64,000 bases of DNA from a virus (taxonomy: Duplodnaviria; Caudoviricetes): positions 26,592-90,591 of the IMG/VR virus record IMGVR_UViG_3300014204_000146, one strand, 5' to 3'. Below are positions 10,735 to 59,868 of the stretch, one piece after another. A program made the position numbers and the translations under genes. Under the pieces are notes generated by a model. That model was not told the DNA's origin, made no database searches, and saw only the letters and a list, made by a program, of their open reading frames with translations. Every line of letters starts with the position of its first letter. Within the stretch, counting starts at the first letter, position 1.

Positions 10735-10970
10735 AATGTAAAAATTGTAAATCAATGTGGAAAATAGAAACTGCTGGAGATGGATTTATTTGCGCTGGAA
10801 TCAATAAAAAACCATCGGTTCATCCTTTAGATAAAATAAGACTTTGTATCAAAGCAGAAAAATGCTACAGAGAGATGGAACTCACACAAAGAGAGGCTGG
10901 TTATATTTGTTCAGCACTTTCAATGTGTTCGGCTATGTTATCCAAACCAATATTAACGAGGATAAAATGA
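10731..10970 (+). CDS. Cys-rich hypothetical protein
   Basis: CKNC; overlaps both neighbours by 4 nt. Confidence 0.55.
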   Translation: MKCKNCKSMWKIETAGDGFICAGINKKPSVHPLDKIRLCIKAEKCYREMELTQREAGYICSALSMCSAMLSKPILTRIK

Positions 10971-13889: not shown

Positions 13890-14473
13890 ATACTTGGTAT
13901 ACTTCCGACCTCCACCTGGGACATGGCAATCTGATAAAATATTGCAAGCGTCCAGTATTACAGCCTATGGATTTATCGTTAAACGGAGATTGGATAAGTC
14001 CAGAACTTATTCGTGAGCGTACTGCTGAGATGGATAAAATAATTATTGATAGGTGGAATAGTAGGGTCAAAACCGGAGACCTTGTTATTCATGCCGGAGA
14101 TTTCTGTTTTAAAAATAGCACTGAGGCGATTGGTAGCCGTGGATTTGATTTTTATCGTTCTCAATTGAACGGAGATATTGTTTTTATTGAAGGTAATCAT
14201 GACGGGAAGAGAAATGATGTAAGAACTGTTATTCAAAACATGGTTATTAAAGCAGGTGGGGAATTCATCTATATAACTCATAATCCAAAATTTGTTCCTA
14301 TGAACAAATGGAAGATTAACCTCATAGGACATGTTCATAATGCTTGGAAATATCAGAAACGGTCAGATGGTTCGATTTTAATCAATGTTGGAGTGGATGT
14401 TAATAATTTCATGCCAAAATCTATAAATGAAATATTGAACGAGCTTGCTACGTGGAGAAAATACGGAAAATGA
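13886..14473 (+). CDS. calcineurin-like phosphoesterase
   Basis: SDLHLGH, HAGDF, GNHD, THNP, GHVH, NVGVD. Confidence 0.88.
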   Translation: MNTWYTSDLHLGHGNLIKYCKRPVLQPMDLSLNGDWISPELIRERTAEMDKIIIDRWNSRVKTGDLVIHAGDFCFKNSTEAIGSRGFDFYRSQLNGDIVFIEGNHDGKRNDVRTVIQNMVIKAGGEFIYITHNPKFVPMNKWKINLIGHVHNAWKYQKRSDGSILINVGVDVNNFMPKSINEILNELATWRKYGK

Positions 14474-14652
14474 CCTGGATTAAATTAATTATTTTATTCT
14501 TATTTTTATATTTTGTGGGAGTTCCTATATTTCTCACTATCGTGTTTTGTGGTACTGTTTATTGGAAAGACTTAAAGAAAATTTATAGTTTAATGTTTGG
14601 AGGAAACAATGAAAAGCGCTTTAATTCTGGGAGGCACGAAGGGAATCGGTAG
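14470..14652 (+). CDS. small membrane protein
   Basis: Hydrophobic N-terminal stretch. Confidence 0.45.
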   Translation: MTWIKLIILFLFLYFVGVPIFLTIVFCGTVYWKDLKKIYSLMFGGNNEKRFNSGRHEGNR

Positions 14653-38321: not shown

Positions 38322-38567
38322 TTATTGCTCCTTACTTTGTTTGGTTACGGAAAGATGAATAGCTTCTTTTCCAAGCCCATACGCTACCAATAATGATTTT
38401 AAATTTCTCGATTTTTCATACAAAAGTTCTTTTATTTGCTGCTTTAAAATATCTCTATCTGAAATTGTTTCAAAGCGCTTCATGGCTTCTCCAACGGTAG
38501 CAATAGAATGGTCTTTTAGGATTTGTTCCAGATGGTCTAAAGTTATATTCAAATTTTTGTTTTCCAT
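38322..38567 (-). CDS. hypothetical protein
   Basis: GAGGAG RBS. Confidence 0.6.
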   Translation of the reverse strand: MENKNLNITLDHLEQILKDHSIATVGEAMKRFETISDRDILKQQIKELLYEKSRNLKSLLVAYGLGKEAIHLSVTKQSKEQ

Positions 38568-38578
38568 ATTCTCCTCAC

Positions 38579-38629
38579 AAAAAAAGCAGACAAAAAGCCA
38601 TCGACTCAGTCAACGCTTCTAATCTGCTT
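38579..38629 (-). terminator. nested hairpin followed by U-run upstream of the 38567 gene
   Basis: Minus strand AAGCAGA...AAGC-GTTGAC-TGA-GTCGAT-G-GCTT...TCTGCTT then TTTT. Confidence 0.55.
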
Positions 38630-47583: not shown

Positions 47584-47826
47584 TTAAGCTCCGATTGGTA
47601 CGTTTATTTTATTTGTATAAAATTCTGTCCAATAAGTTCTATTCTTATTTGCTTTTAGATTGCAAATTTTACAAGTATATGTTTTTAAAGTTCTTCCATC
47701 CTTATAATTTGGATGATTAACTGGATTTTTTAAAAATACTTTCATAGCACAAGAAGCACAATGTCCAGATGTATTTCTTCTTGATATTTCTCTATAACAG
47801 ACATTACAAAATTTCTTTATGACCAT
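47584..47826 (-). pseudogene. truncated zinc-ribbon/NUMOD-like ORF, probable HNH endonuclease remnant
   Basis: CNVC...CASC...NHPNYKDG...CKIC with no HNH catalytic segment following. Confidence 0.5.
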
Positions 47827-49448
47827 ATGCCGAGAGAAGTCTTTTTTGGCTTGGCTTCTTTTGTTAAAAGTGGCATCTGTTCTGTTAACCACTCTAAAAT
47901 CGCGAAAACTTGCATACATTGTACTAAATGGTCTTCACCATTACGAGAATCAAACATCACTTTATTCTGACTAACGATTTGCAAATAATCAGAAAACTGT
48001 TCATCAAACTTTATAAAATTATCCGGTATAATAAATTGTTTATCAAAAAATAAAGTCCTTAATCTCTGAACTGCAAAAATCAATGTATGTTCTTCTTCTG
48101 GAATTGGCTTTCCATTTCCATCTACCGCGAGTTTCTTTGGGTCTTTTTCATCTTTCTTAAATCCAACAACAATGTTTTCATTAAAAGCACACCAAATAAC
48201 TCTCTTCAAAATTTTATCGTCAATAACCAAATCCAATTTTTCACTAAGCTGCCTATAAATTGGAGCCCCCATAATCGTAGCATCCACGGCAATAAAGTTT
48301 GCTCCAACTTTATTAAAAAGCCAAATCATCAATTCGGCGTTTTCTTTGTCGTCCAATTTCCAGGTCGTAATGTTATAAACAAGTTGGTAACGACCATTTA
48401 CTTTAAAAGTAATTCCTATTTCAGTAGCAGCAGCATTGCCTCCAATATCAGCATGAATATATGTTCTTTCTGCACTTTTATGAGAATCAACAATTAATTC
48501 ACTCTTAAATCGAGGATAATTTTCTTTCGTAATCTCAAAAGCTTTTATTGCTTTGTCCGTTTGATAATTTGCTCGGACACGCTCCATGTCGAACGCACCC
48601 TCAGCACCTTCTACCAATTCTGCTGAGACATTAACTTTATAACAAACCGTATTTGTTCCACCATATTGACGCTCTCTTTCTTCTCTTGTCGCAGCGTTCC
48701 AATATGGGCTCGCATATTGTGGCAATCTTAAAATTTGTTTTTGTTTTCGAGCGTCTTTCAAAATTTTTCCTAAAGGAGAGACTTTTGTTACTAACGGAAT
48801 TCCAACCAAAACTTCAGCACATCCTTTTTCTCCAATAGCATCAATCTTTTTATTAAAAGCTGCTTCTGTCTCTGCCTGAATTTCGTCCGTAAAATTAAAA
48901 TCTGTGTGATGCCCCCACCAGTTAGTTCCTGGGTCTTTGCCTTTTATTGTCTCGTTTATACCATAGAAAATATTACCATTCTTGGTTTCTATTTTATATT
49001 CTGGAGACCCTTTGATTGCTTCTTTATATTGTTTAAAAAAACTATGTGATGTAAAAAAACTTCTTATTACATCCATAACCTTAGACATATGTTTTTCGTC
49101 ATATGCAGAAAAGGTCATTTCTTTTCCAGAATAATAAACCATCTTTAAAATTATATTTCCAACTAAAGCAATAAATGTCTTGCCTAATTTACGGGCAAGA
49201 ATAATGTACTTCGTTCCAAGTTTGACTCGACGCTGAAAATTCTCAAAGTCATCCAATCTATCATCATCTTCTAACACACCATCAAGAGCGAGAAATGGTC
49301 TTTGATATGGACGAACTTTCAAACACTCTCCAGCCTCATCCCAATCTCGCATTGCTCCTTGGGGATATAAACTTTCGAGCATACATTTTGGATTATAAAA
49401 ACAAGAAATATAAAACAACTCCTCATCTGTAACGTTCTTTTTTATCAT
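47817..49448 (-). CDS. terL: terminase large subunit
   Basis: ARKLGKT Walker A, FTDEIQ Walker B, HADIGG RNase H-like Asp, DHLVQ. Confidence 0.85.
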   Translation of the reverse strand: MIKKNVTDEELFYISCFYNPKCMLESLYPQGAMRDWDEAGECLKVRPYQRPFLALDGVLEDDDRLDDFENFQRRVKLGTKYIILARKLGKTFIALVGNIILKMVYYSGKEMTFSAYDEKHMSKVMDVIRSFFTSHSFFKQYKEAIKGSPEYKIETKNGNIFYGINETIKGKDPGTNWWGHHTDFNFTDEIQAETEAAFNKKIDAIGEKGCAEVLVGIPLVTKVSPLGKILKDARKQKQILRLPQYASPYWNAATREERERQYGGTNTVCYKVNVSAELVEGAEGAFDMERVRANYQTDKAIKAFEITKENYPRFKSELIVDSHKSAERTYIHADIGGNAAATEIGITFKVNGRYQLVYNITTWKLDDKENAELMIWLFNKVGANFIAVDATIMGAPIYRQLSEKLDLVIDDKILKRVIWCAFNENIVVGFKKDEKDPKKLAVDGNGKPIPEEEHTLIFAVQRLRTLFFDKQFIIPDNFIKFDEQFSDYLQIVSQNKVMFDSRNGEDHLVQCMQVFAILEWLTEQMPLLTKEAKPKKTSLGIWS

Positions 49449-50200
49449 TATAGTTCAGGATTGTGAATTTCTATTTTAAATGATTTCAACATCCATTCCA
49501 ACAAATCCATTGTGATATTTAAATACCTACACGCTTGCGCGGGAGTAATTATACGATTACTCAAATCAGAAAAAATTTCTTTATTAAAAAGAAATCCTCC
49601 GGCAATATACCAGGGATGTTTTACGATTTCGTCTTTCTCTTTATCAATTCTTCTTCTTATAAGAGAAAACTCTAAACAATGAGGGCACTGAAAATCAAAA
49701 TTTGCCCGATTTTCTGCATCGTTAACATAAGCATGAAATCGCTGCATGATGTTGTTGTGAATCTTTACATAGTCGGCGAGTTCTTTATCTTCCTCTTGCT
49801 TGGTCATCCCCAACAATGCTTTGAGTTTTGCAATCTGGTCATTATTACTTCTCAAAGTGTCGAGGGTGTTATTGTGAATTATTGAACTTCCTCCATCAGA
49901 AGCTGTTTGATTGTCGTTAAGATATTTTTTTATCCTTAAATTGGTAATTTCTAAATATATCAAATCATAAAGAGTACGCCTATCCGAACTTGACTCTATT
50001 TCATACTCGGCAGTATATTGATTATAAATTGTCTTAGCAATATCCAATTCTTCAGGATTAACCTGCGAGGACAATTCTCCTTCAAGTTTTTTTTCTTCTA
50101 ATTTTTTTATAGCTGCAACTTCCAGTTCCTCCGGCGAAGCATTTTTATACTGCGTCAGATTTTTCATCTTGGAAATTATTTTTTCTATTTCAGGATTCAT
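49448..50200 (-). CDS. terminase small subunit-like protein
   Basis: Helical protein immediately upstream of terL; C-terminal CPHC and HTH-like segment. Confidence 0.5.
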   Translation of the reverse strand: MNPEIEKIISKMKNLTQYKNASPEELEVAAIKKLEEKKLEGELSSQVNPEELDIAKTIYNQYTAEYEIESSSDRRTLYDLIYLEITNLRIKKYLNDNQTASDGGSSIIHNNTLDTLRSNNDQIAKLKALLGMTKQEEDKELADYVKIHNNIMQRFHAYVNDAENRANFDFQCPHCLEFSLIRRRIDKEKDEIVKHPWYIAGGFLFNKEIFSDLSNRIITPAQACRYLNITMDLLEWMLKSFKIEIHNPEL

Positions 50201-50348
50201 TTACAATTTCCTTTCTTTCCCAATCAAACTCTACTTCCCAATTACACAAAATTATTGTAAAAAATTTTCCTTTCCTACTTCCTCCCCAACCCAAAGCAAT
50301 AAAATAATTATGATGTGGAACGAGCCTTGGACGAAAAGTTGTTTTCAT
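50190..50348 (-). CDS. small hypothetical protein (52 aa)
   Basis: Manual translation MKTTFRPRLV...; overlaps the start of the 50200 gene. Confidence 0.4.
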   Translation of the reverse strand: MKTTFRPRLVPHHNYFIALGWGGSRKGKFFTIILCNWEVEFDWERKEIVNES

Positions 50349-50404
50349 AAACACGACCAATGTAAAAAAATAAAATATGAACTATCTATAAAACAAAAAA
50401 GCCC

Positions 50405-51205
50405 AAGACAAAGAAACCTGGTCTCCGAAACTTTAGATTTCGATTTACCAGGTATCAATAGCTTGAGCTTTAGGTATTACTTGCGAGCTGCACCCGAATA
50501 CTCAGTAACAGCTCATTGCCCGATTCACGGGGTATCTAAAACAAAATGGTATCCGACAATAATTATACGCCGGAATAAATCGACAGCGGGTTCGCGGATT
50601 ACACGCGATAATCTTTCGTAGAACCGTCGCTGGTTCTCGTATTAGCGCCTATACGCTCCGCCAAATTTAAATAACCTTCTTCGAGCTTTCCGCTTACGCG
50701 CGGTAGAAATCAAAAAAGGATAAAATATCGGTCTAACAGTTGACTGAGTTTCGAAGTCTCAGTTGGTCTATTTCTGCCGACCCTAATGGCTACTCAGCTT
50801 ACCCTCCGTTGCAACGGGATAGACCAGGCTCACCTTTTGCGATTTTAAATAGGCGGTCTCTAACTCTTCCGGGAAAGGAAGATTAGACCGCTTTTGTTTT
50901 GATGCAGCAAACCCTTCTCGTCAACTAAAGCAGAGACGCGAGGCGACTCCTTATCAGTCGATAAGAAGAGAAGCGCTTAACATCCTCTCTCAGAATATCC
51001 ACCCGAAGTCGGTTTGAACCAAGGGTTTCTTTCCACAAACGATGTTTTTTTCCACATAAAAATCTCCCAGGTAAATAAATTTTAAAACAATAAGATTGGG
51101 ATATTTAGATGACCTCTTGTTTTTTACTTTGACAGCCGGATTTCTCAGGGCTGTTTCGCTTAATATGTGGTTAAGACCACAACCTTTGTCATATATCCCT
51201 ATACA
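50405..51205 (-). ncRNA. candidate large structured non-coding RNA (~800 nt)
   Basis: No credible ORF; many stem-loops and multibranch helices; sigma70 promoter at the 5' end; hairpin plus U-rich tract at the 3' end. Confidence 0.6.
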
Positions 51206-51210
51206 CTGTA

Positions 51211-51239
51211 AGTATGCCCGAAAATTGCTATTTTTGCAA
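51211..51239 (-). promoter_or_regulatory. sigma70-type promoter facing the ncRNA and virion operon
   Basis: TTGCAA-N17-CATACT on the minus strand. Confidence 0.65.
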
Positions 51240-51592
51240 GTTTATTTTTTTCTATAACATAAGTAATAATAACTACTTATAAAATCAGCATAAAATATAT
51301 TTAAAATATCCTTTAATTTGTTCCTGCGGAGCCCTGAATTTTAAGAAAAGAAAAAGAAAGAACCAAAGAAAAAGAAAAGAATTATATGTATCTATATGCT
51401 GTTTATATATAATATACTACTTCGTAGAACTCAAACCCTAAATAAACAGGGTTCGAGTTCGGCTTATTTATTTATGATTAACAGCAAAAACAAACCATTT
51501 ATCTTTATTATAACTCATTTATATTCAATTATTTATGCTTGATTTGTCTGACAGAATTAGACCCACCTACCCTCATTTCCAATTTATTTATA

Positions 51593-52034
51593 GTTAGATT
51601 CAAATCTAACATTATCTAAGTAGCTACATTGTAACATGTTGGGTTTAGTTAGATTCATTATCTTGTTTTAATGGTGGAAAAAAGTCAAGTTAGATTCTCA
51701 ATCTAACCTATTTAACTATTTTATTTTCAACATGTTAGATTTGTTAGATTCTCGATTAATTCATAAATAAATAATTTCGTTAAAGATAATACAATAAATC
51801 TATATAAATGCTTTAAATACAATGAGTTGGGTTTAGTTAGATTGTTCGATTTTAATTCATAAATAAATAATTTAATGCCCGAAACACCATTTCATAAATA
51901 AATTGGAAATCATTTTATAAATAAACAGATAAATAAATTATCATTTATTTATAAAACCAGGCAAATTTATGTTAGATTCAAATCTAACATTATCTAACTC
52001 ATTGCGAGACTAATCGGTTAGGTCTTGTTAGATT
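51593..52034. repeat. GTTAGATT repeat/palindrome array in AT-rich DNA (origin- or operator-like)
   Basis: 8 forward copies (51593, 51648, 51689, 51734, 51743, 51836, 51971, 52027) and 3 reverse AATCTAAC copies; interspersed ATAAATAAAT. Confidence 0.8.
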
Positions 52035-52648
52035 CTCGATTAATACAGTTAGCCAGTAATTTAAGCTAAAATAACCCAGATACATTATTTATAAGAGCTA
52101 CAGGCAGCAGGTTTCTCGGTCAGGCTCCCATAAACAAAGAATAAGACGTCCATAATGCTAAAAATAACCCTCCGGGAATATACAGAAAAGAAGGAAGATA
52201 AAATATAGATATAAAACAATGCAGGACAGGTGGATGATAGATATTTATTTATAAGATGACGAGCACGAAAAATATATCGTTGGAAAAACACCGTAGTAGT
52301 TCCGTGAAAAAACCCGGCGCGCTTGCTAAAAGTTACCTGCCGGGATAGGGTAAGTCTTTGTATTGTATAGGGTTATAAAAAAAAGAGGCTGTCTTCATTT
52401 CATAAATAAATAGCAATTTATTAGTATAATGGCAGGTGCGCAAAACGCGCCTTTCTTTTGGAAAGCATAACAAACTTTTTACAAGTTTAACATAAATTAA
52501 TTATACTCTGCTGTTCTCTTGTTTGTATGTATCCTGTCCGGCTTCCTTTCCCTTCGTTTATCCTTTTTCTTATTGTGTTATTATAGGCAAGAAAAAAGGC
52601 GCTGTCCTTGTGTATCTTGGAAGCGCCTTTCCCGGCTGTCTTGTGCTT

Positions 52649-52891
52649 TTACTTATGAAAGAAGTTTACTTGTACTTTCTCATACTTTCCTAAAATCGAA
52701 GTTTCCCCTTCAAACGTGGTTATGCGATGCCCGGATTTTAAAGTCTCTGTCCTTGTGGTTATGCGCTCCACGTTGTGAAAGTTGACAGTTAAAGAGCGGT
52801 AAGTGTCTTCTTTGTTAGCATACTCTAAAACGTTGGCTTCTTTTACTTTCCCCTTTCCATAGTCTTTGAGTGTTTTTATAGGTGTTTTCAT
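52649..52891 (-). CDS. early hypothetical protein
   Basis: AAAGGGGA RBS; promoter at 52942-52969. Confidence 0.6.
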   Translation of the reverse strand: MKTPIKTLKDYGKGKVKEANVLEYANKEDTYRSLTVNFHNVERITTRTETLKSGHRITTFEGETSILGKYEKVQVNFFHK

Positions 52892-52941
52892 TGTATCCCC
52901 TTTCTTTTGCCTGTTTATAATCCCATTCTCCTGTCAATTAA

Positions 52942-52969
52942 AGTATAGCATATTTTAAGCTTTTGTCAA
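52942..52969 (-). promoter_or_regulatory. sigma70 promoter
   Basis: TTGACA...TGCTATACT. Confidence 0.75.
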
Positions 52970-52980
52970 GTCAAAACAAC

Positions 52981-53014
52981 AAAAAAGCCGGGAAAGGGGA
53001 TTCCCGGCTTTTGT
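52981..53014 (-). terminator. intrinsic terminator (possibly bidirectional)
   Basis: AAAAGCCGGGAA/TTCCCGGCTTTT with flanking U-runs. Confidence 0.8.
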
Positions 53015-53040
53015 CCGCTATGCTGTAAAATAGCGCTCTG

Positions 53041-53553
53041 TTATACTTCGTTTTCTTTGTATCTTTCAAGGTATGGAGTGACAGCGGAAACGGCTTTCAA
53101 GTCCATGCTTTCAAAGGCTTCCAGCGCCTTTCCTATAACACAAGAAGCTTGACAGCGCGCGCTTTGTATAAAACTGGAATTATCCCTTTTGGCTGTCTCT
53201 TTGTCAAAGTCCGTAATTGTATCTTTTAATTTATCATACAGCGCTTTTACTTGTACAAAGTCTTTCCCCTCTTCACTGTCAAGCTTTGTTTCAAAGTCAA
53301 TTCTTTCTTGTACCTTGTCAAGAAAATCCTGTACTGTTGTAAAGTAAAATAATTCAAAAGTCTTGTCTCTTTCCCCGTTTTCCCAAGTATTGAGAATAGT
53401 TTTTTTCCCGCTTCCATAATCCGGCTGTTTTTCTGTATACGCATGAAACCCGGCGCGCTGGAGCGCTTTCGTTAAGAAAGACAAGCGCTTGTATTTTGTA
53501 CACTGTTTCCCGGCTTCGAGCATTTTCTTTAGTCTTTCAATACGTTTATTCAT
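53041..53553 (-). CDS. early hypothetical protein
   Basis: AAGGGGA RBS. Confidence 0.65.
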   Translation of the reverse strand: MNKRIERLKKMLEAGKQCTKYKRLSFLTKALQRAGFHAYTEKQPDYGSGKKTILNTWENGERDKTFELFYFTTVQDFLDKVQERIDFETKLDSEEGKDFVQVKALYDKLKDTITDFDKETAKRDNSSFIQSARCQASCVIGKALEAFESMDLKAVSAVTPYLERYKENEV

Positions 53554-59706: not shown

Positions 59707-59868
59707 ATGAAATATGCGGTTGATGTTCCAAATTCAGACGTTTCAGACCCGAACAATGTATGGTTGGCGGTTGAATATTTTAAAACGCGCAAAGAGGCAG
59801 TAAAATTTGCTCAAGAGAAATATGGAGCAGATAAAAATGGAAAAGTTTCTTTAGTAAGTTCGCTATAA
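59707..59868 (+). CDS. hypothetical protein
   Basis: Manual start choice at MKYAVDV. Confidence 0.45.
   Translation: MKYAVDVPNSDVSDPNNVWLAVEYFKTRKEAVKFAQEKYGADKNGKVSLVSSL

Follow-up and report, generated by a model that had tools for sequence, protein, structure and literature searches.

The window analyzed here, a 64-kb stretch covering bases 26592-90591 of the 90,591-bp IMG/VR phage record IMGVR_UViG_3300014204_000146 (estimated completeness 90%), contains on its minus strand a locus that very probably encodes a genuine structured noncoding RNA (ncRNA). This RNA is predicted to be transcribed from a sigma70-like promoter at ~51239 to a long-stem terminator at ~50392. With similarly high confidence we assign it to a previously undescribed, modular RNA family with members of 420-815 nt, of which this copy is the largest known. 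A first-pass annotation had proposed a large structured ncRNA with its own promoter and terminator at this place, and covariation in ten homologs bore the proposal out. Positions below refer to the window unless the genome or another contig is named.

The family is defined by a conserved 136-nt core (50723-50858, minus strand), supported by a covariance model and by covariation. Eleven distinct sequences were aligned over the core. RNAalifold gave five nested helices, and a sixth helix, GUCUAU/AUAGAC, which crosses two of the nested ones, was added by eye. Across the 32 pairs in these six helices 98.3% of the alignment cells could pair, as compared to 79.3% in shuffled alignments and 29-43% when the partners were slid. 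Covariation among homologs had been suggested as a check in the first-pass annotation, and 19 of the 32 pairs were found to change on both sides across the eleven sequences, in 68 cells. The covariation score was 0.605 vs 0.21, and none of 500 shuffles reached any of these measures. The pairs of the core are held by compensatory substitutions, as in a structured RNA family.

All six helices lie on the minus strand. H1 pairs 50840-50839 with 50790-50789, and H2 pairs 50834-50832 with 50798-50796 and continues as 50829-50827 with 50803-50801. The crossing helix, H3 (50824-50819 with 50771-50766), forms a pseudoknot over H2 and H5; all of its cells pair (100%) and three of its six pairs are compensatory. 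H4 is a hairpin (50818-50814 with 50809-50804) with double changes at four of the five stem pairs and the loop UUGCAA, which is identical in 11/11 sequences. Double changes were also found at five of the eight pairs of H5 (~50781-50777 with 50731-50727) and at all five pairs of H6 (50762-50758 with 50748-50744). H3 and H6 had both been listed in the first-pass annotation. GACTGAG/CTCAGTT was confirmed by the homologs as H6, and the pairing GGTCTAT/ATAGACC was likewise upheld by covariation, as the pseudoknot H3. Just 5' of the core lies a closing hairpin (50853-50891, minus strand), which is this copy's version of a closing helix of ten pairs found across the family. The closing helix occurs in five sequence versions, is paired at 10/10 or 9/10 positions in the seven members scored by script, and in L068 fits by eye. 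The same hairpin, read from 50891 to 50853, had been noted earlier as GGCGGTCT/AGACCGCT, and its position is supported by covariation in the homologs. Two other helices proposed from the sequence, GGGATAT/ATATCCC and GAGCTG/CAGCTC, were predicted by folding energy only, and a third, AAACCCTT/AAGGGTTT, was absent from the minimum-energy fold.

Three unpaired words in the core were invariant: AAAGGUGAG, GAGUAG and the H4 loop UUGCAA. In the internal loop between H1 and H2, GAAA on one strand faces GAGUA on the other, an arrangement that we take to resemble the sarcin-ricin (bulged-G) motif. As judged from its sequence, the H4 loop, which is self-complementary and invariant above a covarying stem, would fit either a kissing-loop contact or a protein site.

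The family matched no known RNA class. An Infernal cmscan search against Rfam 15, another check named at the outset, gave no match at gathering score over the whole window, the models for GOLLD, ROOL and packaging RNA (pRNA) included. At E<=10 over 50200-51500 only chance matches to microRNA and small RNA models were obtained. Among the ten other family members no RNA family was matched, with none for GOLLD or ROOL at E<=0.1, and the only match was to a transfer RNA (tRNA) gene adjoining the RNA in L073. Direct nucleotide similarity was equally uninformative: blastn against 50,697 phage records gave no match, nor did BLAST against six whole related IMG/VR genomes or blastn against the loci of relatives collected through terL, the gene for the large terminase. 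The whole genomes G002-G005 contained no 800-nt GC island of this kind, and in L006, the nearest phage by terL (67% identity), the upstream gene order was different and no match was found. The locus in G005 was reached through a weak BLAST match at its terminator tail, with the terminator base and U-tract common to both genomes. A 65-nt block common to this RNA, G005 (E 0.0036) and L027 was then detected with nhmmer, and the three-way alignment gave further blocks.

The three invariant words of the 65-nt block were used as a motif scan. In IMG/VR the scan returned only the G005 and L027 genomes plus two matches inside coding sequence. In JGI metagenome contigs it returned ten true members (L060, L062, L063, L065, L067, L068, L069, L070, L072 and L073), among which L068 is the same as G005 and L070 the same as L027/G007, making eleven sequences with this copy; five further contigs were chance matches. 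The matches L058, L059, L061, L064, L066, L071 and L074 failed the covariance model and were discarded, L058 and L059 lying inside a protein gene. In GTDB species genomes all five motif matches (L075-L079) failed the model, leaving no bacterial or prophage copy there. The covariance model of the core scored this copy at 97.6 bits (E 1.5e-20) and the other members at 123-150 bits, and it found nothing in G002, G003, G004, L006, L008, L009/L025 or L010. The core was recognizable in sequence across phages whose terL products are only 32-52% identical to that of this phage. The other members measured ~420-620 nt, as compared to ~815 nt here. The clade that carries the family consists of uncultivated phages of 75-105 kb, and their proteins mostly match no known family.

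At this locus the RNA occupies an island of higher GC content free of open reading frames (ORFs) (50386-51251, minus strand), as the first-pass annotation had described it. GC content was 0.44-0.47 over 50400-51200, as compared to 0.30-0.35 toward the genes and 0.21-0.27 in the opposite flank. Measured over the RNA, GC was 0.43 vs 0.31 in the flanks, and the same contrast was seen in the eight members with enough sequence (0.36-0.43 vs 0.28-0.32). The longest ORF on the RNA strand is at most 37 amino acids (aa), and TAA, TAG and TGA are all present in all six frames. A hidden gene under an alternative genetic code was ruled out, because with all three stop types in every frame no stop reassignment opens a frame. 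An 11-codon mini-ORF (GTG...TAG) within the core was also rejected: L073 has a TGA at codon 4 and this copy a 1-nt insertion, and in the alignments the substitutions of the core track base pairs and not codons. Folding energy gave a modest, strand-specific signal. The whole 835 nt folded at -257.9 kcal/mol (z -4.6) on the minus strand and at -218.8 kcal/mol (z -2.9) on the plus strand. By domain, the minus and plus strands gave z of -2.3 and -0.1 for the 5' domain, -0.1 and -0.4 for the core, and -2.4 and -0.2 for the 3' domain; the plus-strand values are near zero with the exception of the terminator. The core shows no energy signal, though it is backed by covariation, because it contains a pseudoknot.

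The ends of the transcript were predicted from its signals. The promoter, TTGCAA-17-CATACT (-35 at 51239-51234, -10 at 51216-51211, minus strand, predicted start ~51205), matches the sigma70 consensus at only 8/12 positions and was left unlisted by a consensus scan. It is contained in a 44-nt box (51208-51251, minus strand) that is repeated exactly, inverted, at genome positions 10903-10946. The second copy stands in the same orientation 23 nt ahead of the start of a 362-aa metallophosphatase-like gene and overlaps the last codons of a 222-aa weakly sigma-like protein (genome 10258-10946; L002:844-1532), which matches Sigma70_r2 and Sigma70_r4 at E ~1e-3, below the curated cut-offs. The copy before a protein gene fixes the orientation of the box and shows that it precedes a real gene, and the exactness of the duplication suggests that the promoter was copied to or from the RNA locus by recombination. 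Similar boxes stand at the same position in other members, including TTGACA-16-TATACT in L070 and TTGCGG-16-TATACT in L072. The promoter call of the first-pass annotation (51239-51211) was retained in spite of its weak consensus score. A Pfam search of the genome found no reverse transcriptase and no phage single-subunit RNA polymerase; the latter is a weak negative, as control genomes gave no match either, and with no such polymerase found host-type signals should apply.

At the other end lies a composite long-stem intrinsic terminator with a U-tract (50386-50471, minus strand). The base of its stem pairs 50471-50462 with 50407-50398, there are ~28 pairs in all, and the fold (-32.3 kcal/mol, z -5.4) is followed by U6GU4, giving a stable hairpin directly before a U-tract as in intrinsic terminators. 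The stem base and the U-tract are conserved in G005 and L027. The hairpin at 50416-50453 with a U-rich tail reported in the first-pass annotation is real but is only the tip of this longer stem and not the whole terminator. Together the promoter and terminator predict a noncoding transcript of ~815 nt, from ~51205 to ~50392 on the minus strand. The clade's terminators also carry a recognizable RNA tag. A UUGAC-loop-GUCGA hairpin, or a longer form of it, lies within the RNA body in some members and at the tip of the terminator in others, and the same module is present in an internal late-operon terminator both here (~38560-38625, minus strand) and in G004 (C1 near 62302, minus strand). At the tip of the terminator at 38560-38625 the module reads GCGUUGACUGAGUCGAUGGCU, with a ribosome-binding site and a gene directly after it, and G004 has the same arrangement. 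The module recurs in G002, in L008 and in the large RNAs of four family members (L063, L067, L072 and L073), and it could be a tag for regulated termination or RNA processing.

Around its stable core the family is modular and fast-changing. In this copy a 5' three-way junction (51098-51199, minus strand; z -2.5 when folded alone) and a 3' domain (50470-50722, minus strand; z values above) have no counterpart in the homologs, and nhmmer aligned the core region only. These two domains are lineage-specific and are backed only by strand-specific folding energy. A long hairpin at 50912-50975 (minus strand, pairing probability 0.94-1.0), tipped by GGAGUCGCC...GCGUCUC, illustrates how modules move: this copy and L065 have the tip 5' of the core, and L060, L069 and L070 have it 3' of the core. 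Apparently core-less versions were seen by eye at the same locus in G002 (14100-14640), G004 (81250-80980, minus strand) and L008 (1790-2150). They are shorter noncoding regions of structured appearance that share the 5' modules and the closing-helix motif but seem not to have the pseudoknotted core.

The position of the RNA is fixed across the family. In 11/11 members it is in the orientation of the structural genes and directly upstream of them, giving the order promoter, RNA, terminator and same-strand genes, which is the placement of an antitermination RNA. An ORF of at least 50 aa begins 14-33 nt past the terminator in L060, L062, L065, L067, L070 and this genome, which leaves no room for a promoter, and the flanking sequence of L069 and L072, read by eye, has a start codon with its ribosome-binding site at a similar distance. 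The downstream genes are structural; the portal-like protein of L063, for example, is 37% identical to a 587-aa protein of the window. The first-pass annotation had mentioned a late-operon leader as one possibility, and the start of the first gene right after the terminator in most members adds support to it. It had also placed the RNA beside the packaging genes, which holds in this genome but is not a family trait, as the RNA and terL are separated by 4.9 kb in G005 and by 8.3 kb in L027/G007. A second conserved hairpin, CCUGC...GCAGG, with a T-tract was observed between the terminator and the first gene in L063, L065, L073 and G005 (59740-59840) and may act as a second terminator in tandem or be a small element in its own right.

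On its upstream side the RNA follows an array of ATCTAMC/GTTAGAT boxes (51590-52045, in no assigned orientation) recognized by box density, which looks origin- or operator-like. Twelve boxes lie within 2.2 kb upstream of the RNA here, whereas the remainder of the genome has 0.34 per kb. In each of the six members with sufficient flanking sequence, an ATCTAMC array was found 0.4-1.5 kb ahead of the core (5-12 boxes vs 0.2-0.6 per kb elsewhere). Equivalents of the array occupy the conserved position in G005, L060, L070, L072 and L073. A purine-rich tract lies between array and promoter in other members; in this genome (51340-51385) it is on the opposite strand.

The genome as a whole (90.6 kb, 34% GC) encodes a B-family DNA polymerase, RecA, RuvB, ligases and a tape-measure protein. 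Most of the structural proteins had no match in Pfam or PHROG families. Genes across 25381-50200 lie on the minus strand, and the gap at 50200-53041 is nearly devoid of coding sequence. Downstream of the RNA on the same strand (49448-50360, minus strand) the ORF list gives a 56-aa ORF and a 250-aa protein (49448-50200); neither matched any family, and the 250-aa protein is labeled terS by position only. The next gene (47817-49448, minus strand) encodes a 543-aa protein that is a large terminase by its predicted fold: the AlphaFold model (mean predicted local distance difference test score 87.9) matched the D6E, T4 gp17, Sf6 and HK97 large terminases in Foldseek, from E 2.6e-17. Several terL homologs (P0003, P0004, P0026, P0031, P0039, P0049 and P0055) are 870-930 aa long and carry intein or LAGLIDADG domains. 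The 89-kb contig of one relative was deposited as a Patescibacteria metagenome-assembled genome, which could point to the host or reflect faulty binning. At 52942-52969 on the minus strand, directly after a strong terminator (53012-52983), a sigma70 promoter close to consensus (TTGACA-16-TATACT, 11/12, preceded by a TG) heads an 80-aa ORF (52649-52891) in an otherwise noncoding 2.8 kb.

For the function of the RNA we tentatively favor a reading in which it is the first transcription unit of the structural block and acts as an RNA-level gate on late-operon transcription. Host RNA polymerase would start at the constitutive-type promoter, transcribe the folded RNA and by default stop at the strong long hairpin, releasing a discrete RNA. 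Expression of the structural genes would then need read-through by the polymerase or processing of the transcript at the terminator hairpin, and this step would be controlled by the folded RNA or by a factor bound to it. Control is placed after initiation because the promoter of the RNA is identical to that of a replication-block gene and because, in most members, the structural genes lack the space for a separate promoter; any delay of the structural genes must then arise past the initiation step. The UUGAC-loop-GUCGA module, present at the terminator tip of several members and in internal late-operon terminators, also counts for a gate. Large antitermination RNAs at operon heads have precedent (PMC8191782, PMC9378689). 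The conAn2 RNA of conjugative plasmids, HK022 put and the lambda PR'-6S-tR' unit operate along similar lines.

Several points weigh against gating. Long-stem terminators resist antitermination of the conAn type (PMC10325885), and the long stems here may instead mean that the RNA is designed for clean termination and release as a free molecule. For antitermination, to judge by the known RNAs, a core this elaborate would not be needed. It is also absent from some relatives, in which the model scored nothing and the G002, G004 and L008 loci look core-less by eye, so the core is not indispensable for late expression across the clade. In this genome 185 nt separate the terminator from the terS-position gene, and an unconventional late promoter could lie hidden there. 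Genome-wide searches found no Q-like protein (PF06530, E<=0.1) and, by Pfam, no NusG/LoaP-like protein, negatives that carry little weight as most proteins of the phage are unrecognizable.

A trans-acting RNA of the GOLLD/ROOL type is almost as likely as the gate, and the two are not exclusive. The product would be a discrete, stable, ornate RNA, possibly a homo-oligomer joined through its palindromic loop, and its position would set only the timing of its synthesis. Such a role would suit the elaborate conserved core with its pseudoknot, sarcin-ricin-like loop and invariant UUGCAA loop above a covarying stem, the GC enrichment typical of stable RNAs, and the gain, loss and expansion of domains between lineages. 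A tRNA gene immediately downstream of the RNA in L073 (3077-3149, 63 bits, ~70 nt past the terminator) recalls a common trait of GOLLD and ROOL; such a neighbor was found in 1/11 members, and the 64-kb window has no tRNA or transfer-messenger RNA gene. The long-stem terminator favors clean release (PMC10325885), and GOLLD and ROOL are themselves large phage-associated RNAs that form RNA-only multimers (PMC12286853). However, a purely trans-acting gene would need neither the same position and orientation in 11/11 members nor genes beginning 14-33 nt past its terminator, no GOLLD or ROOL model was matched, and oligomerization is a conjecture. A role in replication, as a primer or origin-activating transcript in the style of ColE1 RNA II or lambda ori activation, would account for the ATCTAMC array upstream in 6/6 members with enough flank and for the AT-rich DNA and purine tracts between array and promoter. 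We consider it unlikely. The RNA is transcribed away from the array, which is the only origin-like feature and a putative origin that could be an operator set, whereas a primer like ColE1 RNA II is transcribed toward its origin; the RNA ends at a canonical intrinsic terminator and not at an RNA-DNA hybrid site, and primer RNAs are not known to have pseudoknotted cores with invariant loops. Least probable, and in our judgment very improbable, is a role in packaging in the manner of phi29 pRNA, together with the terminase or portal. The RNA here does stand directly upstream of the terS-position gene and the fold-confirmed terL, but this adjacency is not conserved (4.9 kb in G005, 8.3 kb in L027/G007) and the next genes in several members encode small structural proteins or a portal-like protein. 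The conserved place, after the box array and at the head of the structural block, argues against a pRNA-like role. No pRNA model was matched, and the DNA polymerase is a standard B-family match (PF00136) with no sign of the protein-primed type.

The RNA can be compared with several known systems. GOLLD (RF01998) and ROOL (RF03087) are likewise large (~600-800 nt), highly structured, modular ncRNAs of phages and prophages, and one member here adjoins a tRNA gene. The present family differs in matching neither of their two Rfam models (cut-offs E<=10 for this copy and E<=0.1 for the other ten members), in its unrelated core with a pseudoknot, a GAAA/GAGUA loop and a UUGCAA loop, and in its fixed position after a box array and immediately before structural genes. 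The conAn2 RNA of Gram-positive conjugative plasmids is also large (260-600 nt), poorly conserved and placed at the start of a long operon with intrinsic terminators (PMC8191782), but it follows the conAn1 gene and works with the protein of that gene, whereas the RNA here has no known partner and carries at its end a long-stem terminator, a type resistant to conAn (PMC10325885). Upstream of the RNA there are ~1.8 kb of noncoding DNA and small ORFs without a family match, a region for which no ConAn1-profile search was made. In HK022 put (PMC9378689) and the lambda PR'-6S-tR' unit, as at this locus, an RNA or leader close to the promoter lies between a promoter of constitutive type and a terminator shielding the phage genes downstream. 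However, put is ~70 nt with two stem-loops, and the 6S leader of lambda, at ~200 nt, depends on Q; the homolog of Q was not found here in the PF06530 search of the genome at E<=0.1, a weak negative. The RNA here is 6-10 times larger, with a covarying pseudoknotted core. Like phi29 pRNA (RF00044) the RNA is phage-encoded and structured, and in this one genome it adjoins packaging genes, but it is much larger, matches no pRNA model and is not linked to terL across the family.

To our knowledge few large structured RNAs of bacteria and phages have been described: ribosomal RNA, RNase P, group I and II introns, OLE, GOLLD, ROOL, raiA and HEARO. Work on each new class has proved rewarding, the RNA-only cages being the latest case. 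The RNA described here adds a covariation-supported class of up to ~815 nt with a compact core small enough for structural work. A more doubtful proposal, which we offer as speculation, is that it represents a new class of ornate, modular phage RNAs that would themselves switch the expression of the structural genes. The pseudoknotted core and the modules embedded in its terminator would govern read-through or processing at long-stem terminators, either by acting on the polymerase or through a recruited phage factor, possibly with self-association through the UUGCAA loop. The fixed setting of the RNA between the box array and the structural genes makes the hypothesis of an RNA gate on late transcription testable, a handle that GOLLD and ROOL do not give.

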